The position numbers and the translations under genes are program-made. DNA of 64,000 nucleotides from an uncultured Thermoleophilia bacterium. GTDB lineage: Bacteria > Actinomycetota > Thermoleophilia > Solirubrobacterales > 70-9. Of this stretch, positions 4,563 to 27,771 are shown one piece after another; the stretch's first letter is position 1, and the number at the start of each line of letters is the position of its first letter. The stretch covers positions 1,436,887 to 1,500,886 of the forward strand of contig CAWGON010000002.1 in assembly GCA_963824245.1 (NCBI GenBank), written 5' to 3'. The notes below the pieces were generated by a model. It searched no databases, had not been told where the DNA came from, and worked only from the letters and a program-made list of their open reading frames with translations.

Positions 4563-5614
4563 AGCCCGCGGACCAGCTTGCCGACGGTCTCTTCGCCGAA
4601 GTAGGGCCCGTAGGTGCGCTTCTTGTTGTCGAGGTGCAGGTAGGAGTTGACCCCGTTGATCTGGCTGCCGTCTCCGATCAGCCAGCCGCCGCCGCTGGCG
4701 CCCGGCGCCCAGCGGCAGCCGATCGCCAGGGTCGGCGGGCCGGAGAAGCGGTAGGTGAGCGGGTCGTCGCCGAGGTAGTCGGCCTGGCAGCCCTGCATCC
4801 GCTTGGTCTCGCCGGGATAGCCGAAGGTGAGGAACGTCTGGTCGCGCGGCAGCTCGGTGACGATCGTGGCGCCGCCGCCGACCGCGTCGGCGAGGTTGAC
4901 CCCTTCGGGGTTCGGCTTGACGAGGAAGGCGCCGAGGTCGAAGTCGGGGTTGCCGTGCTTGGTCCACTGCTTGGGGGCGAAGATCTTCTCGGAGCGGGCG
5001 ACGAAGGCGCCGAACGGGGCGAGGTCGCCGCTGTAGGCGGGGACGAACTCGAGGAAGTCCGACCAGACCGCGCGGTGCCCTTCTTCGGGGCCGCTGTTGA
5101 CGCAGTGGCCGGCGGTGAGGACGAGCTGGCGGGTGGGGGTGTTGATCGCGGTTCCCGAGCAGAAGCCTTGGAGCTTGCCGCGGCGGATGAAGATGCGGCC
5201 GTTGACCGAGTAGGGCGGGACTTCGGGGGTCGGCACGCGGGTGAAGCTGGCGGCCGCCTTGGCCGGGGCGGCGATGCCGACCCGCAGCCGCGTCTCGCCG
5301 CCGCTGTCGACGACCAGGTCGAGCGGGCGCGCCGCCGCCATCCGCTGCGGCGTCCAGTAGTCGAGGACCCGTTGCGCCGGCGCCGCGGAGGCGCTGGCGC
5401 CGTTGCCCGCGGGGCCCGGCGCGTGGGTCCGGAAGCCGGCGTCGGCGCTGAGCGGGAAGGCGAGCAGGGCAAGGGCAACCAGCGCGAGCAGGCTCGCGAT
5501 CGTTACCGAGGGGCCCCCTGCCGGGCGAACGGGATCCGCACCCATCGCCCCGGAGAATAGAGATCGGGGGGCGGCGGCCGACGCATGTCCGAGCCGGGTC
5601 GCCGGGCGGGTCAT
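4559..5614 (-). CDS. Secreted trypsin-like (S1 family) serine peptidase
   Basis: Signal-like VTIASLLALVALALLAFPLSADA. The catalytic context is LTAGHC, DFDLGAF and PGASGGGW. The ORF is intact. Confidence 0.75.
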   Translation of the reverse strand: MTRPATRLGHASAAAPRSLFSGAMGADPVRPAGGPSVTIASLLALVALALLAFPLSADAGFRTHAPGPAGNGASASAAPAQRVLDYWTPQRMAAARPLDLVVDSGGETRLRVGIAAPAKAAASFTRVPTPEVPPYSVNGRIFIRRGKLQGFCSGTAINTPTRQLVLTAGHCVNSGPEEGHRAVWSDFLEFVPAYSGDLAPFGAFVARSEKIFAPKQWTKHGNPDFDLGAFLVKPNPEGVNLADAVGGGATIVTELPRDQTFLTFGYPGETKRMQGCQADYLGDDPLTYRFSGPPTLAIGCRWAPGASGGGWLIGDGSQINGVNSYLHLDNKKRTYGPYFGEETVGKLVRGL

Positions 5615-6287
5615 CCGACGAGGGGGAAGACGCAGCGGAAGTTTCTGTTTTCGGTCGAGACGACGAAATCGATCTCTCCCTCCGCGGAAACGGTGACTAC
5701 CGAGTACGCATCGAGGCCCGCCACGTTCGTGAGATCTCCGCTCCACTCTCCTCCAACCGCCAGAACCACCCCGGGTTGCAGTGCGAACGCCGACAGTGCC
5801 AGCGCCTCGGGCAGTTCCCCGCCCGCCGCCGCGCACGCTTCCGCCGCCTCCGGCGCGGTCGCCGCGGCGCTTTCGCCGAGCTGCCAGCAGGCGCCGGCGA
5901 AGTCGCGGGTGCCCTCCCCGCAGCCGGCGCTGAAGCCGTTCAGGCGCTCGGCGTCGGCGGCGCGCTCGGCGCTGCAGCGCCGGCCCCGCCTCGCGGGCGC
6001 TGCCGGCGGTCTCGGCGTGGGCCGCGCTCGGGACCTGGCCGAGGGTCGCGGCGTTGACCTGGGTGCCGACGATCGCGCCCGGGGCCAGCCGGTCGGTCGG
6101 GACCGATCCCGGCCGCAGCCGGTTGCCGGGGACCGAGCCGGGAACCAGCCGGTTGCCGGGCAGCGAGCCGGTGCGGATCGAGTGGCCGTCGATCTTGGTC
6201 GCGGCCCAGACGCTGCCGCCGAGCGCGACGAACAGCGCCAGCGCAGGCGATCGGCAGTGCCGGCGAATGTCGGCGCAATCCCCTCAC
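5611..6287 (-). CDS. Secreted hypothetical protein with short GS(L/V)PGNRL-type repeats; frame-interrupted as given
   Basis: The GTG at 6287 has GGAGGGG upstream. Signal-like SPALALFVALGGSVWA is followed by GSLPGNRLVPGSVPGNRLRPGSVPTDRL. The stop overlaps the peptidase start (5611-5614). Confidence 0.35.
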
Positions 6288-18809: not shown

Positions 18810-19555
18810 ATGCAGGCGACCCCGTCGTCCCGAGCGCCTGGCCGAGACCGCATTGGGGCGGCGGGCTCGCGTTCCGCCGCCGGCGGGAGAGATCGGCTCG
18901 CCGGCGCCTTAGCCGCGCATGACGCGGACGGCGGCGGACGGCCCTGAACGAGGCGCTGCACGAGCTGCGCCGGCCGCTGCAGGCGCTGGCCCTGGCCGGC
19001 GGCGACGGCGGCGCCGGAGGCCGATCGAGGCCCTGCTCGCGATGGCCGCCGCGGCCCTGGAGCGGCTCGACCGCGAGATCAACGGCGGCCGGCCGCCGAG
19101 TCCGGGCGCCGCTGCGGTGCGGCCGCTGCTGGAGGCGGCGGTCGGGCGCTGGCGCCGGCGCGCCGACCTCGCCGGCGGCTCGCTGGAGCTGCGCTGGCGG
19201 GCCGGCGAGGCGGTCGTCGACGGCGATCGCTGCGGGATGCTGCAGGCGCTCGACAACCTGGTCGCTCAACGCGCTCGAGCACGGCGGGCCGCGGATCGTC
19301 GTCGACGGCGACCAGCGGCGACGCCGGCGGTCCGGGTCGCGGTGCGTCGACTCCGGCACGTGCCGCTGCGCGGGAGCCGCGGCGCCGCGCTGCGGCTGGC
19401 GGCGCGGATCTCCGGGCGCCGGCCGCCACGGCCACGGCCTGCGGGTGGTGCGCCGGACCGCCGCCGCCCACGGCGGCAGCTTCGCCCTGCGCCGCTCGGA
19501 GGCCGGCACCGAGGCGGTCCTCGAGCTGCCGCTGCTCGCCGGGGCGCCGGCATGA
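18810..19555 (+). CDS. Small soluble histidine kinase (HisKA + HATPase_c); frame-interrupted
   Basis: ALNEALHELRRPLQAL is an H-box. LDNLV(A)NALEHGG is an N-box. HGHGLRVVRRTAAAHGGSF is a G-box. No TM segment is seen. Confidence 0.55.
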
Positions 19556-20206
19556 GCCGGCGCCGGCGCGCGCTCGCCTTCCTGCTCGCGGCGGCGCTGG
19601 CGGCGGCGACCGCGGCGGCGATCGCCGACGGCTACGGCGAGCAGCGTCGCCCGCGGCTACGGCGAGCTGCGGCCGGTGGTCGTCGCCGCGGCGACCGCTG
19701 GCGGCCGGCAAGCCGGTCGACCCGAGCGGCCGAACGGCCTGGAGGTGCGGCGGGTGCCGGTCCGCTTCGCCCCGCCGGGGCGCTGCGCGGCGCCGGCCGA
19801 AGCGCTCGGGCTGGAGGCCGCGGCGCCGATCCCGCGCCGGCTCCTACCTGCTCGCCGCGCAGCTGCGCCCGCCGCGTGGCGACGGACGCGCTCGGCGGCG
19901 GCGCTGGGCGCCGGCCGGCGGCCCGGTGGAGATCGCGGTCAGCGGCGCCGACGCGCTGATGGTCGCCGGCAGCCAGCCGGTCGGGGCGCGCGGTCGACGT
20001 CGTCGTCACCACCGAACCGAGCGGCGGCGGCGCCGGGCGCACCTACGTCGCCGCCAGCGGCGTGCCGCTGCTGGCGCTCGGCCCCGGCGAAGAAGCGGGC
20101 GGGCGGGACCGCGGCGGCGACCCTGGGGCTGACCCGGGCGCAGGCGCTGCGGCTGATCGCCGCCGAGAGCTTCGCCCGCCGGGTGACGATCCTGCCGGCC
20201 GGTTGA
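19552..20206 (+). CDS. cpaB: Flp pilus assembly protein CpaB/RcpC-like; frame-interrupted
   Basis: N-terminal [26 protein letters not shown], then ...[28 protein letters not shown]...[15 protein letters not shown] and [23 protein letters not shown]. Confidence 0.55.
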
Positions 20207-21310
20207 GCGTGGGCGCGCGGGAGCGAAACGTCGCCGCGCTGGCCGCCGACGCTGCGCGGGCGCCTGGTCGAGCGCCGCCGGGCCGAGGCGGCGGCCGGCC
20301 GGGCGCCGGCGGGCGAGCTGCGCGAGGCGGTGCGCGAGCTGGTCGACGAGGAGGCGGCGCTGCTCGGCGCCGGCCGAGCGCGAGGAGGTGGTCGCGCGGA
20401 TCGTCCGCGACAGCGTCGGCCTCGGCCCGCTCGAGGTCCTGCTCGCCGACCCCGCGGTCGAGGAGGTGATGGTCAACGGCCCCGACCGCGTCTACGTCGA
20501 GCGCGGCGGCCGGATCGAGCCGACCGCCGTCGCCTTCGCCGACGAGGAGGAGCTGCGCAACGCGATCGAGCGGATCCTGGCGCCGCTCGGCCGCCGGGTC
20601 GACGAGCTCAGCCCGATGGTCGACGCCCGTCTCGCCGACGGCTCGCGGGTCAACGTGGTGATCCCGCCGCTGGCGATCGACGGGCCGGCGATCTCGATCC
20701 GCCGCTTCGGCGCCCGACCGGCCCGGGCCCGACCGAGCTGGTCGAGCTCGGCACGCTCGACGCGGGCGCAGCGCGAGCAGCTCGAGGCGGCGGTCCGCGC
20801 GCGCCGCAGCATCCTCGTCAGCGGCGGCACCGGCTCCGGCAAGACGACGCTGCTGAACGCGCTCTCCAGCTTCGTCGACCCGGCCGAGCGGGTGGTGACG
20901 ATCGAGGACGCGGCCGAGCTGCGGCTGCAGCAGCCGCACGTGGTGCGGCTGGAGAGCCGGCCGGCCGGGGTCGAGGGCACGGGGCGAGGTGACGATCCGC
21001 GACCTGCTGCGCAACGCCCTGCGGATGCGCCCCGACCGGATCGTGATCGGCGAGGTCAGGGGGCCGGAGGCGCTCGACCTGCTGACCGCGCTGAACACCG
21101 GCCACGACGGCGCCCTCTCGACCGTCCACGCCAACTCGCCCGCCGACGCCCTGAGCCGGCTGGAGACGCTGGCGCTGATGGCCGGGGTCGGCCTGCCGCA
21201 CGAGGCGATCGCCGAGCAGGTGCGGCGCGGGATCGACCTCGTCGTCCACCTGCGGCGCGAGGCCGACGGCTCGCGCCGGGTCAGCGAGATCGCCGAGGTG
21301 GAGCGTGACC
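20203..21310 (+). CDS. cpaF: Tad/Flp pilus assembly ATPase CpaF/TadA; frame-interrupted, 3' end approximate
   Basis: [49 protein letters not shown] (Walker A), [52 protein letters not shown]. Confidence 0.8.
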
Positions 21311-22154
21311 GCGGTCCTGCATCGCCGCGCGCTGGCCGGCGGCGCTGCTGGCGCTGGCGGCGCGCGAGGCGCTGCTCGCGAGCCCGGCGCTCGCCGGCCT
21401 GGCTGCGGCTGGCGCTGGAGCCGCTGCGCCGGGCCGGGCAGCGAGGGCTACGCGCCGATCGACCTGGAGCGGCGGCGGCTGGCGGCGCTCGGCGACCGCG
21501 GCGGTCGTGCTCGGCGGCTGGCTGCTGGGCGGGCCGGTGCTGGCGCTGCCGCTCTCGGTCGCCGGCCCGGCCGCGGCGGCCTGGGCGATCTCCAGCCGCC
21601 GCCGGCGCTACCGGGTCGCGGTCGAGCGCTCGCTGCCGGAAGTCGCGACCGCGGTCGCCGACTCGCTCAGCGCCGGCCGCTCCCTGCGCGCCTCGCTGCC
21701 GGCCGCCGCCGGCTACCTGGACGGCCCGCCGGCGGCCGAGCTGGCCCGGCTCGGCGCCGAGCTCGACCTCGGCGCCGCGACCGGCGGCGACGGTCGAGGC
21801 CTGGCGGCGGCGGATGCGCTCGGAGCGGGTCGACGCCTTCGCCGCGGCGCTGCTCAGCCAGCGGCTGGCCGGCGGCGACCTCGCCGGCCTGCTGCGCCGC
21901 TTCGCGGCCGGGGCGGCCGAGCGCGACCGGGTCGCCGAGGACGCCAGCTCGGCGACCGCGCAGGCGCGCTTCACCGGCCTGCTGGTGGTGGCGATGCCGA
22001 CCGGCGGCGCGCTCTTCGCCGAGCTGGTCGCAGCCCGGCTTCCTCGCCAAGCTGCTCGGGCTCGCCGGCCGCGGCGGTCCTGCTGGCGCTCGCCGCGGGC
22101 CTGCAGCTGGTCGGCTTCGTCGCGATCAGGCGCCTCTCGCGGGTGGTCGAGTGA
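21305..22154 (+). CDS. tadB: Tad pilus membrane protein TadB-like; frame-interrupted
   Basis: [23 protein letters not shown], ...[23 protein letters not shown]..., and the C-terminal [25 protein letters not shown] (T2SSF-like). Confidence 0.55.
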
Positions 22155-22974
22155 GGTCGGCCGGACTGGCCGCGGCGGTCGCCGTGCTCTGCGCCTTCGC
22201 CGCCGGCCGCGAGCTCCTGGCCGCCCGCGGCGGCGCCCGGCTGCCGGCCCTGCCCTTCGGCCTCAGCCGGCGCTCGGCCGGCGCCGCGCTGCGCCTCGGC
22301 CTGCCCGAGCGGCTGCGCCGCTCCGGCCTCGAGGCGCGCTTGCCGCTGGCCGCGGTGCTCCTCGGCCAAGGCGGTCGCTGCCATCGCCGGCGCCCTGGCG
22401 GCGCTGGCCGCGGCGCCGGCGGCGCCGGGCCGGACGGTCCTGCTGGTCGCGCTCGCGCTGCCGGCGGCCGGCTTCTTCGCCCCCGACGCGCTGCTCGAGC
22501 GCGAGGCGCGCCGGCGGCAGCGGCGCCTGGTCGCCGCCCTGCCCGACGCCCTCGACCTGCTCGCGGTCAGCGCCGGCTCCGGCCGCGGCCCCGCCGCCGG
22601 GCTCGAGCAGCTGGCGCGGGCGGGGGAGGGCCCGCTGGCCGAGGAGCTGCGGATCGCCGTCGCCGAGCTCTCCTGCGGGCGGCCGCTCAGCGCCGCCCTG
22701 CACTCGCTGCGCGCCCGCGTCCCCGGCAGCGAGCTGGCGACCCTGGTCGCCTCGATCGAGCGCTCGCGCCGCTTCGGCTCGCCCGCTCGCCGAGCAGCTG
22801 CGCCGCCAGGCCGGCGCCCTGCGCCGCGACGGCCGCCGCGCGGTCGAGGAGCGCGCCGCCCGCGCCGCGCCGAAGATCCAGCTCGTCGTCGCCCTCGTCC
22901 TCGTCCCCTCGGTCCTGCTGATGATCGCCGCCGGCCTGATCGCCAACGCCGGCACCCTGCTCGCTGGCATCTGA
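22151..22974 (+). CDS. tadC: Tad pilus membrane protein TadC-like; frame-interrupted
   Basis: [45 protein letters not shown], ...[13 protein letters not shown]..., and the C-terminal [26 protein letters not shown]. Confidence 0.55.
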
Positions 22975-23098
22975 ATGGATCTATTGTTTAGGCATCACTG
23001 AGTACGCAATCTCGACCAACCTGATCAGCTGGGTTCCGGCGAAGGAAGGCATCTTCGGCTGGCCCCTCGACGGGCCGGAGGCCGAGGCGGTCGAACGG

Positions 23099-25024
23099 AT
23101 GCGCCCGGAGGATCTGCTGATCCCCAAGTTCTCGCAGAACCCCGACTACGCGCGGGCGGGCGGGTCGCAGGCGGACTACGTGAAAGCGATCTGCGAGTTC
23201 TTCGGGCGCGACTACGAGCGTGAGCGGAGCGATTACGAAGAGCGGGTCGCGGGCGGCGGCGCGGCGGTGCCGTTCGTCTGGAGGGTCGAGCGCCAGTACC
23301 GGTTCGGCCCCCGCGACGGGTTGCCGTGGGCGGCGGTGAAAATCGAGCAGGTCGAGTTCGAGCACCCCTTCTCGACCAGCGAGTTCCTGCGCCTGCGGGC
23401 GATCCCGATCGAGCTCGCCCGCCAGTTCAAGGCGACGGCGGCGCAGGGCCGGCACATCCAGCGGGTGCCGGAAGAGACCGTGGCAAAGCTCTTCGAGGCG
23501 AGCTCCGGCCCCGCCGGCCGCAGGGCGGCCCTGCGAAACCTGCTGCTGGTCAAGGCGGCGGACGGAGCCGAGGCGCTGGACCGGATGGTCGACGAAGGGA
23601 TCGAGCCGCGGGAGGGCGATTACCTCTTCCTCGTCACCCCACAGGGGTTGCCGGGCTTCTACGCGGTCGAGGACTCAGACGGCGACCTCGTCGCCACCCG
23701 CCATGGGCGGGCGATCGGGCAGTCGCCCTGGGAGCTGGGCGAACTGGTCGCGGAGGCGGTCAGCAAGGCGCTCCCGGCCGACGACTTCAAGCCCGGCAAC
23801 CCGCGCCGCGCCGGCATCGAGCTGCGCGAGTTCGCGGAGTCCGAGCAGACGGTCCGGGCGGTCGAGGAGTTCGGGCACTTCTACGACCGCTACGTGAACC
23901 TGCCGCAGAAGGTCAGCCAGGCGCTGGAGATCGCCGGCCGGACGGTCGCGGCGCCACCGGGCCCCGAGCCGCCACTCGACGAGGAGGAGGACGAAGGGGA
24001 GGGCGAGGACAGCGAGCAGCTCGAGCACGACAGCCTGCAGGGGCTGACGGTCGCCGCCGTCGAGGCGGGGCTGGCCGAGCTCGAGCTGCCGCGCTCGGTC
24101 CTGGCCGAGGCGGTGACGGCGCTGCGCTCCGGCAAGCACCTGATGCTGTCGGGACCGCCCGGCACCGGCAAGTCGACGGTGGCGACGGCGCTCTGCCGGG
24201 CGGTGATGGAAGACGAATTCGAGACCGCGACGGCGACCGCCGACTGGACGACGTTCGACACGATCGGCGGCTACATCCCCCAGGCCGGCGGCGCGCTCGA
24301 GTTCGAGCCGGGGATCGTCCTGCGCAGCCTCGAGCGCGGGCGCTGGCTGATCATCGACGAGCTCAACCGGGCCGACATCGACAAGGCCTTCGGGCCGCTG
24401 TTCACCCTGCTCGCCGGCTCCGGGCAGGAGACCGGCGACGTCGACGTGATGCTGCCCTTCCGCAAAGACGACAAGAACGTGCGGATCGTCTGGTCGCGCC
24501 GCCGCGGAGAGGCCGACTCGCCGTATGCCGTGACCCCCACCTGGCGGATCATCGGCACCCTCAACGCGCGCGACAAGGCGTCGCTGTTCCAGCTCAGCTT
24601 CGCCTTCCTGCGGCGCTTCGCGGTGATCGACGTGCCGCTGCCGGCGCGCCGGGAGTTCAAGGACCTCTTCTCGGGCTGGGTCCAGAAGGTCGAAGAGCCG
24701 GTCCGCGGCCAGCTGGCCGAGGCGGCGATGGCGCTCGCCTTCGGGCAGCGGCCGCTCGGCCCGGCGATCCTCAAGGACGTCGCCGGCTTCACCAGCATCG
24801 GCCTCACCGCCACCGAGACCGCCTCCGTCTCCGCTGCCTACGGGGACCCCGTCGAGGCCTTCCTCGCCGCGATCCGCCTCTACGCGGTGCCCCAGTACGA
24901 GGGCGCCACGCAGGCCGAGGTCGACGGGCTCCTGCACGATCTCGGCGCGGCCCTGGCGGGCCCGCCGCCGGAGCAGGCCTGGGCGGCGCTGGAGGCGGCG
25001 ATGAAGGACGTCGTCCTGCGGTGA
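23099..25024 (+). CDS. McrB-like AAA+ (AAA_5) NTPase with an unassigned ~330-aa N-terminal region; the ORF stays open upstream to 22975 with no in-frame start
   Basis: LMLSGPPGTGKST is Walker A. WLIIDELNRADIDKAFGPLFTLL matches the McrB-type DExNRA. WRIIGTLNARDKASLFQLSFAFLRRFAVIDV matches the McrB NxxD/RRF segment. The ORF is intact at 641 aa. Confidence 0.75.
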   Translation: MRPEDLLIPKFSQNPDYARAGGSQADYVKAICEFFGRDYERERSDYEERVAGGGAAVPFVWRVERQYRFGPRDGLPWAAVKIEQVEFEHPFSTSEFLRLRAIPIELARQFKATAAQGRHIQRVPEETVAKLFEASSGPAGRRAALRNLLLVKAADGAEALDRMVDEGIEPREGDYLFLVTPQGLPGFYAVEDSDGDLVATRHGRAIGQSPWELGELVAEAVSKALPADDFKPGNPRRAGIELREFAESEQTVRAVEEFGHFYDRYVNLPQKVSQALEIAGRTVAAPPGPEPPLDEEEDEGEGEDSEQLEHDSLQGLTVAAVEAGLAELELPRSVLAEAVTALRSGKHLMLSGPPGTGKSTVATALCRAVMEDEFETATATADWTTFDTIGGYIPQAGGALEFEPGIVLRSLERGRWLIIDELNRADIDKAFGPLFTLLAGSGQETGDVDVMLPFRKDDKNVRIVWSRRRGEADSPYAVTPTWRIIGTLNARDKASLFQLSFAFLRRFAVIDVPLPARREFKDLFSGWVQKVEEPVRGQLAEAAMALAFGQRPLGPAILKDVAGFTSIGLTATETASVSAAYGDPVEAFLAAIRLYAVPQYEGATQAEVDGLLHDLGAALAGPPPEQAWAALEAAMKDVVLR

Positions 25025-26301
25025 GCAGGACCGTCGACTCCGCCTTCTCGCCGCAGCTGCGGGAGCGGCTGTTGAGCGAGATCCGCAACTACCTGCCCGC
25101 CTTTCTCAGCGGCAGCGCCAGCGAGCGCCACGACCCGGCCGGCGACGTGCGCGAGCTGCTCAACCTCGAACCAGGCGACCTCGAGCAGGTGGTCTCGGTC
25201 CACCGCTGCCTCGACGAGCGGGTGCTGGAGCTCGGGCGGGCGCTGGGGCAGGGGCTGCGCTATCCGATCGGCTCGAGCGACCGCCGCCGGGAAGTCCGCC
25301 AGAGCGTGCGCGGCCCCGTCGACTGGTCGGCCACCGTGGCCGGCCGCTCGCTCGAGGGCGGCAACCCCTCGCTCTTCGTCACCCGGGGCGCCGCCCGCGT
25401 CTTCGACACGCCGGAGGCCCGGGCCCTGGTCTGGTTGCTCGACCGCCTGCGCGACTCGGCCAAGCTGGCGCTGCAGGAACTGAGGAACGTCGGGCCCGTG
25501 GACGCGGAGGGCCCGCTGCCGACGGCCTGGGCGGAGAAGATCCAGGCGCTCTCCCAGCAGGTCCGGGCCGCGCGCCAGGTCGAGTGGCTGCGCGGGGTCG
25601 AGCCGCAGGCGCCGACCGCGGCCACGCTGCGGCGCCTGCGCGCCTACCGCGGCGGCGGCTTCTACGCCGAGCGGGTCGCGCCGGCGCTGCGCGCGGTCCT
25701 CGACCTCGACTCACCCTCCGATCGGGTGCTGGCCGAGATCCTCAGCCGGCGCTACTTCGAGCCGGCTGAGAACTGGGTGATCTTCGAGGTCCACGTGGCG
25801 CTGTCGCTGGCCCGGGCGTTCGCGATCGCCAGCGGCCACCCCCGCAAGACCCGCCTGCTGATCGGCAGCGACCGCGCCTCGTTCGCCAGGTACGGATTCG
25901 ACGACGGCAGCGAGGTGGCGCTGATCCGCCAGGGCTGGCCGCCGCACAGCGGCTCCTCCTTTCGCGAGGCGGTCTGTGCTCGCCACGGGCTCGGCACGCA
26001 GCCACGGCGCCCCGACATCTTCATCGTCCGCAGCGGGCCCCGGCCCGACGCGGCGGTCCTGGAGCTGAAGGCCTCGTTCAACCGCTCGACCCTGGTCGGC
26101 GGCCTCTCGCAGATCCTCGCGTACATGGCGGAAAGGCCGAGCGCCTGGAGCGGGCCGCCGGCGGGCTGGTTGGTCGCCCCGGACCCGACCAGGTTCGCCG
26201 CCCACGCGGCGGTTGCGGGCGAGCCCCTGTGGATGGTCGGCGCGGACTCGGTCGCCGCCGCCGCGGTCGAGCGCTTCGCCCCGGCGGCGGGCCCTAGCTA
26301 G
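25021..26301 (+). CDS. McrC-like partner with a PD-(D/E)xK nuclease motif
   Basis: The GTG at 25021 overlaps the McrB-like stop (GTGA). The C-terminal RPDIFIV...AAVLELKASF fits D...ExK. It is intact (426 aa) in the 23326..26301 frame. Confidence 0.6.
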   Translation: MSRTVDSAFSPQLRERLLSEIRNYLPAFLSGSASERHDPAGDVRELLNLEPGDLEQVVSVHRCLDERVLELGRALGQGLRYPIGSSDRRREVRQSVRGPVDWSATVAGRSLEGGNPSLFVTRGAARVFDTPEARALVWLLDRLRDSAKLALQELRNVGPVDAEGPLPTAWAEKIQALSQQVRAARQVEWLRGVEPQAPTAATLRRLRAYRGGGFYAERVAPALRAVLDLDSPSDRVLAEILSRRYFEPAENWVIFEVHVALSLARAFAIASGHPRKTRLLIGSDRASFARYGFDDGSEVALIRQGWPPHSGSSFREAVCARHGLGTQPRRPDIFIVRSGPRPDAAVLELKASFNRSTLVGGLSQILAYMAERPSAWSGPPAGWLVAPDPTRFAAHAAVAGEPLWMVGADSVAAAAVERFAPAAGPS

Positions 26302-27137
26302 CTCGTCTCGGCCGCCTCGTCGCGCAGGCGCTTGGCGACGGCGGCGCTGGCGGCGGCGATCGTGTCGAGGTCGGCGGCCTTCTCCTTGTGGCCGCTGACG
26401 TAGCAGCAGAGGTTGCCGCCGACCAGCTCGAAGGCGAACTTCGGCGGCGCCGCGTCGGTCAGCCAGACGATGAAGGTGGGCGAGAAGAGGCGGCGCAGCC
26501 AGACCGGGTCCTGGGACTTGCCGGCGAAGATCTCGTACTTGTCGTCGAGCACCTCGCTCTCCAGCTCGACCCGCTCCTTGGAGCGGCGGAAGACGTCCTC
26601 GAGCTTCTCCAGGGCGCGGAGGCCGAACTTGCGCTGGCAGTAGAGCTCGGGCAGGTGGTCACCGCTCTCGGGGACGTGGACGAGGCCGACCGTGTAGCGG
26701 TAGTAGTTGGTCTGGCGGTTGCCCTTGCTGTCGGTCGACTCTTCCTCGTAGGTGTAGAGAGCGAGGATTCCCTCGAAGCCCTCGCCGATCGGGCCGGAGA
26801 GGGTGCGCTCGGCGTAGCGGTCGTCGCCCTTCTCCAGCAGCGGCGTCGCCGGCGGCAGCGGCGCCCGGCCGCCGAGCTCGAGCCCGCGTTCCCTCGCGTA
26901 GGCGCCGAAGAAGGCGTCGGCGGCGCGCGAGTCGGCGATCGCGAAGACGATCAGGACGCCGGCGATCGCCACCCCGGCGGCAACGGCGCCGCCGATCGGG
27001 GCGCTGAGGAAGATCGCGCCGGCGGCGGCGCCGGCCAGCGCGAAGCCGCCGATCAGGAACCAGGTCAGCGGCCGCCCGATCAGCAGCCGGAAGTGGTGGC
27101 CCCGGAGGTCGTTGGCGTCGTCGATCGGCTCGCTCAC
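26298..27137 (-). CDS. Two-TM membrane protein, DUF3137-like (family assignment from memory only)
   Basis: The TM pair is LTWFLIGGFALAGAAAGAIFL and GGAVAAGVAIAGVLIVFAI. The soluble domain reads ...YTYEEESTDSKGNRQTNYYRYTV...ELESEVLDDKYEIFAGKSQDPVWLRRLFSPTFIVWL. The GTG at 27137 lies 7 nt after TAGGTT. There is a 4-nt CTAG overlap with the convergent McrC-like gene. Confidence 0.5.
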   Translation of the reverse strand: MSEPIDDANDLRGHHFRLLIGRPLTWFLIGGFALAGAAAGAIFLSAPIGGAVAAGVAIAGVLIVFAIADSRAADAFFGAYARERGLELGGRAPLPPATPLLEKGDDRYAERTLSGPIGEGFEGILALYTYEEESTDSKGNRQTNYYRYTVGLVHVPESGDHLPELYCQRKFGLRALEKLEDVFRRSKERVELESEVLDDKYEIFAGKSQDPVWLRRLFSPTFIVWLTDAAPPKFAFELVGGNLCCYVSGHKEKAADLDTIAAASAAVAKRLRDEAAETS

Positions 27138-27193
27138 CCCGCGCAACCTACCGCGAGCGGGGGCGGATGCAAATGGGGTTGCAGAGGGAGGGT

Positions 27194-27228
27194 GTGTTGC
27201 AAAGTGGGGGAGTGTGGGTTATTGTGGC
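27194..27228 (+). promoter_or_regulatory. MraZ operator: four GTG(G/T)N boxes in exact 10-nt phase
   Basis: GTGTT (27194), GTGGG (27204), GTGGG (27214) and GTGGC (27224). This matches the known MraZ-box arrangement upstream of mraZ. Confidence 0.65.
27197..27225 (+). promoter_or_regulatory. Candidate Pmra promoter overlapping the MraZ boxes
   Basis: TTGCAA (27197-27202), a 17-nt spacer, then TATTGT (27220-27225). Confidence 0.45.
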
Positions 27229-27330
27229 GATCGAGTTGAAGCCCAGGACCGGGGTGGTGAGGCTCCTCCCACCTCATCACTCCGGTCCCAACTCTTTCCG
27301 GCCCTCCCGCTCTAGAAAGGACTCGCCGAG

Positions 27331-27771
27331 GTGGCATTTCGGGGTCTCTACGAGCACAGTCTCGACTCCAAGGACCGACTCACGGTTCCTTCGCGCTTCC
27401 GCGCATCGCTTGCCGATGGAGTGGTTCTCTCCAAGGGCTTCGACCCCTGCGTCTGGGTCCACACGACCGCCGAGTTCGAGCAGCTCTCCGACCGCTTCCT
27501 CTCCCCGCACAGCCCGTTCGGGCACGACGCCCGCCAGCTGCGCCGCCGCTTCCACGGCGGCTCCTTCGACGAGAAGCTCGACTCCGCCGGCCGCATCCGC
27601 ATTCCCAGATCGCTGCTCGAGCACGCCGGGCTCGACGGTGACTGCGTGGTGATCGGCGCCGGGGAGTACCTGGAGATCTGGGACGCCGACGCCTGGGCCA
27701 AGCAGGAGCTGGAGCTCGACGCCGCCGCCCCCGAGATCGCCGAGGGCCTCGCCGCCTCCGGGACTGCGTGA
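27331..27771 (+). CDS. mraZ: Transcriptional regulator MraZ
   Basis: MAFRGLYEHSLDSKDRLTVPSRFR and ...LDSAGRIRIPRSL are the two SpoVT/AbrB-like DxxGR motifs. This is the first gene of the dcw cluster. Confidence 0.9.
   Translation: MAFRGLYEHSLDSKDRLTVPSRFRASLADGVVLSKGFDPCVWVHTTAEFEQLSDRFLSPHSPFGHDARQLRRRFHGGSFDEKLDSAGRIRIPRSLLEHAGLDGDCVVIGAGEYLEIWDADAWAKQELELDAAAPEIAEGLAASGTA

Follow-up and report, generated by a model that had tools for sequence, protein, structure and literature searches.

We analyzed a 64,000-nucleotide stretch of DNA from an uncultured Thermoleophilia bacterium (hereafter the window), in which two overlapping genes lie between the tad genes and the dcw cluster. Gene 1 is predicted to encode an McrB-type AAA+ GTPase with an N-terminal reader region, and gene 2 a putative McrC-like nuclease; together they very probably form a two-gene restriction cassette of the McrBC family (Type IV, modification-dependent). 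The guanine-cytosine (GC) content of the window is 73% (mean 0.733), its composition is actinobacterial, and its nearest relatives are uncultured Solirubrobacterales metagenome-assembled genomes (MAGs). Structures were modeled with AlphaFold2, and model confidence is given as the predicted local distance difference test score (pLDDT). The features of the pair are as follows.

22994–25024, plus strand: gene 1, McrB-like, 676 codons counted from the ATC at 22994
22994–23470, plus strand: predicted EVE/PUA-like beta-barrel reader domain, residues 1 to ~160 (AlphaFold2 model and Foldseek)
23471–23959, plus strand: second N-terminal subdomain, alpha/beta, residues ~160–322 (secondary structure from the AlphaFold2 model)
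23960–24034, plus strand: acidic low-complexity linker PGPEPPLDEEEDEGEGEDSEQLEHDS (end of the AlphaFold2 model, low pLDDT)
24035–25021, plus strand: McrB-type AAA+ GTPase module (Pfam AAA_5 and aligned McrB motifs)
24152–24175, plus strand: Walker A of gene 1, GPPGTGKS
24350–24376, plus strand: Walker B of gene 1, IIDELNRAD (DELNRAD)
24563–24574, plus strand: NxxD signature of gene 1, NARD
24608–24619, plus strand: LRRF, arginine pair of gene 1 (RRF at 24611–24619)
25021–26301, plus strand: gene 2, McrC-like, 426 aa, GTG start
25309–25326 and 25408–25422, plus strand: RGPVDW and TPE[NA]R, motifs of the N-terminal helical/stalk domain of gene 2
25786–25788, 26011–26016 and 26062–26070, plus strand: E256, P331-D332 and E348-x-K350 of the C-terminal PD-(D/E)xK nuclease of gene 2
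26008–26022 and 26059–26076, plus strand: the motif text RPDIF and LELKAS of gene 2

An earlier reading of the letters alone (the original prediction) had placed an McrB-type AAA_5 core in the open reading frame (ORF) 23099–25024, which is 641 aa long when counted from its first ATG. The core is there: GPPGTGKS, DELNRAD, NARD and RRF are all present, and the Pfam AAA_5 score, 68.5 bits, exceeds its cut-off of 22. Among 5.8 billion proteins searched, 574 were homologues of gene 1, and the details given for homologues rest on the best 120 of them. Most of these 120 are 660–690 aa long (also given as 663–683 aa) and cover 99% of the extended gene 1 translation, and JGI labels most of the gene 1 homologues 'MoxR-like ATPase'. 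Walker A, DELNRAD, NxxD and RRF are invariant in an alignment of 85 homologous sequences. The Walker B motif, the NxxD signature and the arginine pair are the defining marks of McrB GTPases (PMC11090510, PMC10602043), NxxD being the McrB signature (PMC11090510). Gene 1 and McrB align as IIDELNRADIDKAFGPLFTLL / IIDEINRGNISKIFGELITLL in the Walker B segment, as IIGTLNARDKASL / IIGTMNTADRS in the NxxD segment and as FLRRFAVIDV / LRRRFAFIEV in the arginine-pair segment. When gene 1 was compared with the PDB by phmmer, midasin scored highest, followed by Thermococcus gammatolerans McrB (6ut3, 3.6e-8) and E. coli McrB (1.8e-7). The midasin score was the sum of several weak repeats confined to the Walker A-B stretch, and McrB proteins were the only matches of the C-terminal half alone. 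As judged from these motifs and alignments, gene 1 is an McrB-type AAA+ GTPase, for which GTP use itself is expected by analogy.

The coupled downstream gene with a PD-(D/E)xK motif had been taken for McrC, and our results agree with this. The stop codon of gene 1 and the start codon of gene 2 overlap in GTGA (25021–25024), and the 4-nt overlap recurs in homologous loci L001, L003, L004 and L087. With the AlphaFold2 model of gene 2 (pLDDT 89.9), E. coli McrC (6ut6_G) was the only significant Foldseek match (E = 1e-5, probability 1.0, 395 columns); the PD-(D/E)xK nucleases Can2, VC1899 and Card1 came next in the list. Conservation of the nuclease residues had been named as a check, and E256, P331-D332 and E348-x-K350 proved invariant in 96–116 homologues of gene 2, as did the RGPVDW…T segment and the TPEN(R) motif in the N-terminal half. 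Comparison of gene 2 with the PDB by single sequence and by profile gave no match, and only the fold search succeeded. Its sequence gave no significant match among the PADLOC and NCBIfam models. One homologue of gene 2 (P0161) carries a precomputed match to PF09823 (DUF2357), and the family reaches the partner gene of Bacillus methanolicus (hhalign 99.5%, E = 1e-22). By its modeled fold, gene 2 is McrC-like with intact nuclease residues, and it would cleave DNA by analogy. In L088 (8019–9316), from one of the closest relatives, the McrC homologue is split into ORFs of 91 aa and 337 aa; the cassette may have suffered a frameshift or be decaying, or the split may be an artifact of assembly.

For the first ~120 residues of the N-terminal region, a loose resemblance to a PUA/EVE-type barrel had been suggested, and this was right at the level of the fold. 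The AlphaFold2 model of residues 1–329, built on 85 sequences, had a mean pLDDT of 94.7. Foldseek against the PDB matched it to the EVE domains of PH1033 (E = 1.7e-5) and Rpa0253 (E = 4.1e-4), to the EVE-HNH endonuclease VcaM4I, which is specific for modified DNA (E = 3.9e-4), to the EVE domain of THYN1 with 5-methylcytosine (5mC) DNA (E = 3.3e-3), and to the founding EVE structure 2eve (E = 4.8e-3). Probabilities for the EVE matches were 0.99–1.0, and template-modeling (TM) scores (TMt) were 0.50–0.58 to single-domain EVE targets. The five significant matches (E ≤ 1e-3) were all chains of EVE domains or of VcaM4I, and YTH domains matched more weakly than EVE domains. Because of these matches, residues 1 to ~160 are confidently predicted to fold as a very divergent EVE/PUA-like barrel. 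In sequence searches the N-terminus gave only a sub-threshold match to TruB_C/PUA (E = 0.05–0.13). N9, F21, W23, P24, E29, K45, Y81, W112, R135, Q144 and K146 of the barrel are invariant in the family. Among these, W23, K45, Y81, W112 and R135 are aromatic or basic, and they are candidates for a pocket that would take up a flipped modified base.

The second subdomain (residues ~160–322) contains a conserved GDxxFLV strand and an EFGxFYDRY helix. An internal duplication of the two N-terminal subdomains was considered and rejected (hhalign probability 0.2%), and a fold search of BFVD with the N-terminal model added nothing useful. The 325-aa N-terminal module is rare: an exhaustive phmmer search found 38 proteins or clusters among 1.84 billion representatives, mostly from Solirubrobacterales and other Actinomycetota. 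The full-length ones have the same architecture, except for one longer protein of 934 aa, and the others are fragments. The original prediction had spoken of a possibly new sensor domain. This largely fell under the condition that the prediction had itself set for its refutation, since on the modeled fold the N-terminus belongs to the EVE/PUA-like reader class; residues ~160–320 are without a family match. The reader is thus best described, from its model, as a divergent member of the EVE class and not as a new class of sensor.

Pairs of a GTPase and an McrC-like protein were also observed in Bacillus methanolicus, Hadarchaeota, Methanobrevibacter, haloarchaea and others (L044:9158–12327; L052:8765–12200; L023–L083). 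These relatives were located by an alignment-based scan of contigs, as a scan with a single protein was too specific and found none. The N-termini of the GTPases in the archaeal and Bacillota pairs differ, with lengths of ~290 aa for L044 and ~420 aa for L052; neither of these two N-terminal regions had a Pfam match. The Hadarchaeota McrC-like partner gave weak matches to DUF2357 (1e-3) and VRR_NUC. It is typical of McrBC that readers are exchanged while the GTPase/McrC core stays constant, and the archaeal and Bacillota pairs offer a reservoir of unclassified reader domains attached to this core.

The pair occupies a short convergent spacer, and the inserted segment extends from 22975 to ~26297 (~3.3 kb). 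The flanking genes, outside the module, are as follows.

22160–22974, plus strand: tadC (T2SSF family), left flank, TGA stop at 22972–22974 (tblastn with TadC of L085)
26298–27146, minus strand: gene3, convergent two-transmembrane protein of 282 aa, right flank
27331–27771: mraZ, followed by rsmH and ftsI (dcw cluster)

The stop codon of gene 2 shares CTAG (26298–26301) with that of gene3, as had been noted from the letters. The label DUF3137-like given to gene3 was not borne out, as no Pfam family matched the 282-aa protein at E ≤ 1 and none was precomputed for the 120 homologues listed. Gene3 has 2650 homologues, the best 120 listed being 71–88% identical to it, and in all Solirubrobacterales loci examined it is flanked by mraZ and the tad operon.

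In three MAGs (L084, L085 and L086) the gene order was mraZ – gene3 – tadC – tadB – tadA, with no McrBC pair. The spacing between the stop codons of gene3 and tadC in these MAGs was 4, 15 and 49 bp, and their gene3 copies (L084:7001–7876, L085:7001–7876 and L086:7001–7831) were 88%, 85% and 72% identical to that of the window, respectively. Since the gene3 order is kept in the three MAGs without the pair, gene3 is a core gene and the insert comprises two genes only. An inserted module had been proposed from the letters, and the insertion was supported by the empty junction in three relatives and by the other contexts of the pair, but the module has two genes and not three.

The pair was found in at least four contexts other than the tadC/gene3 junction. 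In L001 it lies between P450/asparagine-synthase genes and a phosphoesterase gene, and on the P0016 contig it adjoins a glycosyltransferase gene. In L087 and L088, which hold the closest McrB relatives (67% identity), it lies between an ABC transporter gene and PhoD. In L003 (2947–7826) it adjoins genes for a 684-aa N6_Mtase protein, an N6_N4_Mtase, a small ORF and a ResIII/DEAD helicase; such a neighborhood resembles a defense island, or else the link with methyltransferases that has been noted in certain branches of McrBC. At the same tadC–gene3–mraZ junction as in the window, the pair occurs in two Solirubrobacterales MAGs that are more distantly related, L007 (10001–14829) and L012 (9121–14910), with leaders of 76–85 nt and canonical TTG/ATG starts. 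Among the three occupied loci (window, L007 and L012), McrB identity is 61–62% and gene3 identity is 63–67%. As far as sequence identities go, these values fit either an old residence with losses or repeated insertion at the tadC/gene3 junction, so that this site may have housed the pair for a long time or may have taken up insertions repeatedly. The pair is a variably present genomic islet: the junction is empty in L084–L086 and occupied in the window, L007 and L012, and the pair occurs elsewhere too.

No integrase or transposase genes were found at the borders of the insert, nor any convincing target-site duplication, terminal repeats or homologous leader remnants. A promoter and terminator scan of 22000–27600 found none; it used a sigma-70-type consensus only, which is weak in a high-GC actinobacterium. 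Transcription of the pair presumably reads through from the tad operon. The block had been described as lying in a locally AT-richer stretch. This applies to the 19-nt leader (GC 0.37) and mildly to the first 500 bp of the insert (0.69, against 0.80 in the tad genes), but the insert as a whole (0.726) equals the window mean, and with GC at third codon positions of 0.95–0.96 its composition is host-like.

The tad region (window 19000–22500) has a GC content of 0.78–0.83, the highest in the profiled part (15–35 kb) and close to the maximum reached by 3.3-kb segments anywhere in the window, and it contains long spurious ORFs in six frames. The tadA, tadB and tadC homologues (window 20209–22974) are split over several frames relative to the L085 proteins. 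The tadA pieces lie at 20209–20247, 20252–20371, 20376–21068 and 20968–21306 (frames 1, 2, 0 and 1), and the tadC homologue is spread over three frames. Either the tad genes are true pseudogenes, or their broken frames come from indel errors in a stretch of 80% GC within a long-read MAG. In L084, a sister MAG, murE-like and rsmH ORFs are truncated (1531–2901 and 5310–5849), indicating that MAGs of this kind may carry frameshift errors, which bears on the tad genes of the window. The McrBC pair (3.3 kb) and the dcw genes are intact, unlike the neighboring tad genes.

The results establish that the reader has an EVE-like fold, that the GTPase core is of the NxxD McrB type, that the partner is McrC-like with intact nuclease residues, and that the overlapping operon is conserved as a unit. 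By analogy with McrBC of E. coli and T. gammatolerans, whose mechanism has been described (PMC11090510), the McrB homologue of 676 aa would bind a flipped-out modified base in DNA through its N-terminal EVE-like barrel, and its AAA+ module would assemble a GTP-dependent hexamer. The N-terminal stalk of the McrC homologue would enter the AAA+ ring and stimulate GTP hydrolysis, and its PD-(D/E)xK domain would cut DNA. GTP use, hexamer formation, DNA rather than RNA as the target and the identity of the base modification are expectations from such analogy, and restriction activity of this McrBC subfamily is likewise a prediction.

Several results weigh against the cassette reading. The EVE assignment derives from a predicted structure, with TM-scores of ~0.55–0.58 to the targets. 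The EVE, ASCH, YTH and PUA models of Pfam did not match gene 1 at E ≤ 1, precomputed Pfam data of the 120 homologues contained no EVE-type domain, and a profile search of the PDB with domain 1 returned no EVE entry. The second subdomain, ~160 aa, had no profile match in the PDB and none in Pfam when 28 domain-2 sequences were used. Gene 2 had no significant Pfam match, only DUF2357 at E = 0.2. Gene 1 scored 27.7 bits with the NCBIfam McrB equivalog NF008457, for which the cut-off is 637, and no PADLOC model for McrB or McrC matched the pair. Since gene 1 falls so far short of the NF008457 threshold and no PADLOC McrB model matched, gene 1 is a relative at the level of the family and not an orthologue of E. 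coli McrB. Finally, gene 1 begins with ATC and without a Shine-Dalgarno sequence, which speaks against normal expression in this genome.

The features upstream of gene 1 that bear on its start are as follows.

22975–22993, plus strand: leader of 19 nt from the tadC stop codon to the first codon of gene 1, AT-rich (GC 0.37), no Shine-Dalgarno sequence
22975–23001, plus strand: upstream ORF (uORF) MDLLFRHH*, 8 codons, ATG abutting the tadC stop codon (TGAATG), out of frame with gene 1

The frame of gene 1 is open upstream to 22940, further than the position 22975 first reported, and, as first reported, it contains no ATG, GTG or TTG in frame before 23099. The description of the ATG at 22975 as out of frame and adjacent to the tadC stop codon was accurate. 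The public annotation starts gene 1 at the ATG at 23099 (641 aa), dropping 35 conserved residues. Nearly all of the best 120 homologues begin with M/V/L-x-[ED]-[YF]-[AT]-x-S-T-N-L-I-S-W. As the homologues cover the extended translation and share this start motif, the 35 codons that precede Met36 are coding, and the start position shared with the homologues is 22994. The window reads ATC at this position, and all 19 homologous loci compared (19/19) have ATG, GTG or TTG there. Most of the 19 loci carry GGAGG 6–12 nt upstream of the start, in leaders of 30 to >80 nt; no Shine-Dalgarno sequence precedes the ATC in the 19-nt leader of the window. An independent Logan assembly of another run has the same ATC, with one single-nucleotide polymorphism (SNP) nearby, indicating that the ATC is no simple consensus error. 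Re-sequencing had been proposed to settle the start, and this second assembly answers the question in part. A frameshift from the ATG at 22975 and a sequencing error were both rejected, because the homologues start exactly at the position of the ATC and the second assembly agrees. With an ATC start and no Shine-Dalgarno sequence, the full-length, reader-bearing protein is probably made very little or not at all in this genome.

A rival explanation, which we hold to be a real possibility though not the one we favor, is that the copy in this genome has been silenced or is in early decay. In that case the start was mutated to ATC and the Shine-Dalgarno leader was lost, and at most a truncated protein would be made from Met36, without the first two strands of the barrel. 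This explanation concerns the activity of the pair in this genome, not the identity of the family. Besides the canonical starts of the 19 loci, it is favored by the invariant residues N9, F21, W23, P24 and E29, which precede Met36 and would be removed by a start there, and by a GAGG located 10 nt upstream of the ATG at 23099. The split McrC of L088, where the pair of a relative may be decaying, and the broken frames of the adjacent tad genes point in the same direction, as does the efficiency of AUC initiation in E. coli, only ~1–2% of that of AUG (bioRxiv 10.1101/063800). On the other side, the two intact ORFs (3.3 kb) run collinear with their homologues, all residues invariant in the family are kept, and the frame ahead of Met36 remains open and conserved over its 35 codons. 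ATC can initiate weakly, and low expression of a nuclease may be tolerated or even favored. In addition, the stop codon of the uORF lies 3 nt beyond the ATC at 22994, so that the uORF abutting the tadC stop codon could deliver ribosomes to the ATC, as we infer; it may be a termination-reinitiation relay or an accident of the insertion.

A restriction cassette of the McrBC family remains our preferred reading. We put forward one extension of it tentatively and consider it unlikely: the EVE-like barrel together with the second subdomain may read a modification, or a modification in a structural context, outside those of the characterized Type IV readers, and the ATC start with its tadC-coupled uORF may be no lesion but a genuine device for low-level initiation, by which expression of a self-toxic nuclease is held to a minimum.

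We regard it as improbable that the pair targets modified RNA, like the CoCoNuT-type relatives of McrBC. Foldseek also returned YTH domains and RNA-binding PUA-like proteins, modified RNA is among the targets of EVE, YTH and PUA-like domains, and an RNA target has been predicted for one branch of McrBC (PMC11090510). However, the CoCoNuT branch has an NxD signature, coiled-coil fusions and often additional or replaced nucleases (PMC11090510), whereas the signature here is NxxD (NARD), the McrC has a plain stalk and a PD-(D/E)xK domain, and neither model contains long coiled coils. The best-matching multi-domain enzyme, VcaM4I, is an endonuclease for modified DNA.

We give very little credence to a co-option of the pair for cell division, like that of S. 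aureus PcdA (PMC10602043), which would explain the location near mraZ and the dcw cluster in three genomes (window, L007 and L012). PcdA is without McrC and has degenerate Walker motifs, whereas here no variation is seen in the GTPase motifs or in the nuclease residues of McrC; moreover, relatives closer by their flanks (gene3 85–88%) have no pair at the junction, and the closest McrB homologues (67%) lie between the ABC transporter gene and PhoD. Equally hard to credit is the reading behind the public annotation, in which gene 1 would be a MoxR-type AAA+ chaperone ATPase and its partner an unrelated protein: the JGI names, the breadth of AAA_5, which includes MoxR and midasin, and the top phmmer score of midasin suggest it, but that score came from summed weak Walker A-B repeats, the NxxD/RRF segment aligns with McrB proteins only, the partner is McrC-like and not a VWA protein, and the bpMoxR and AAA_3 matches were below their cut-offs.

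The pair represents a sizeable actinobacterial branch of McrBC that escapes both the models of PADLOC and the EVE and McrC models of Pfam. The branch comprises hundreds of Solirubrobacterales proteins, together with proteins of Mycobacterium, Mycolicibacterium, Nocardia and Cellulomonas. Its public labels are 'MoxR-like ATPase' and 'hypothetical protein', and cataloguing it would improve the annotation of soil Actinomycetota. The specificity of the reader could extend the toolbox of modification-dependent enzymes. In this genome, the public model of gene 1 is 35 residues too short, and the ATC start is a concrete case of start-codon loss or of non-canonical initiation.

In comparison with known systems, the locus is a divergent addition to the described EVE-McrB/McrC type; it opens no new class, and its practical value is modest. 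CoCoNuT-type McrBC is set apart by the signature, which is NxxD and not NxD in the window, and by its long coiled coils, which are seen in neither model. S. aureus PcdA is an McrB-family AAA+ protein (EVE-EVE-McrB) with N-terminal PUA-like domain(s), which positions FtsZ and has lost McrC and the integrity of its Walker motifs (PMC10602043); all catalytic motifs of the window pair are intact. VcaM4I (6yex) resembles the window pair in the EVE-type fold of its reader (Foldseek E = 3.9e-4, probability 1.0) but is a single-chain HNH enzyme without an AAA+ motor or McrC. E. coli K-12 McrBC (6ut6, 6hz4) is similar in that Walker A, DExNRA, NxxD and RR align, and in the McrC fold, the gene order and the overlap. 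Its reader is DUF3578/ADAM and not EVE, the sequence similarity is confined to the GTPase core, and its McrC is not detectably similar by sequence. T. gammatolerans McrB (6ut3/6ut5) is the best McrB match in the PDB and has a reader of the same PUA-like/EVE-like superfamily. That YTH-like reader binds N6-methyladenine (m6A) DNA, whereas the modeled reader of the window is nearest to PH1033, 2eve, THYN1 and VcaM4I.

EVE-McrB with McrC is the commonest EVE defense architecture, no other reader is fused to McrB as frequently as the EVE/PUA-like class, and EVE-McrB systems often contain additional domains (PMC7641849, PMC11090510). Compared with these computationally defined systems (Bell et al. 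2020 BMC Biol, PMC7641849; Bell et al. 2024 eLife, PMC11090510), the reader of the window is missed by EVE Pfam and profile searches and seen by its fold, and it carries an extra subdomain of ~160 aa. The pair shares with them a predicted reader of the EVE superfamily, the NxxD GTPase, an overlapping downstream McrC with a stalk and a PD-(D/E)xK domain, and the form of a compact two-gene operon scattered among genomes.

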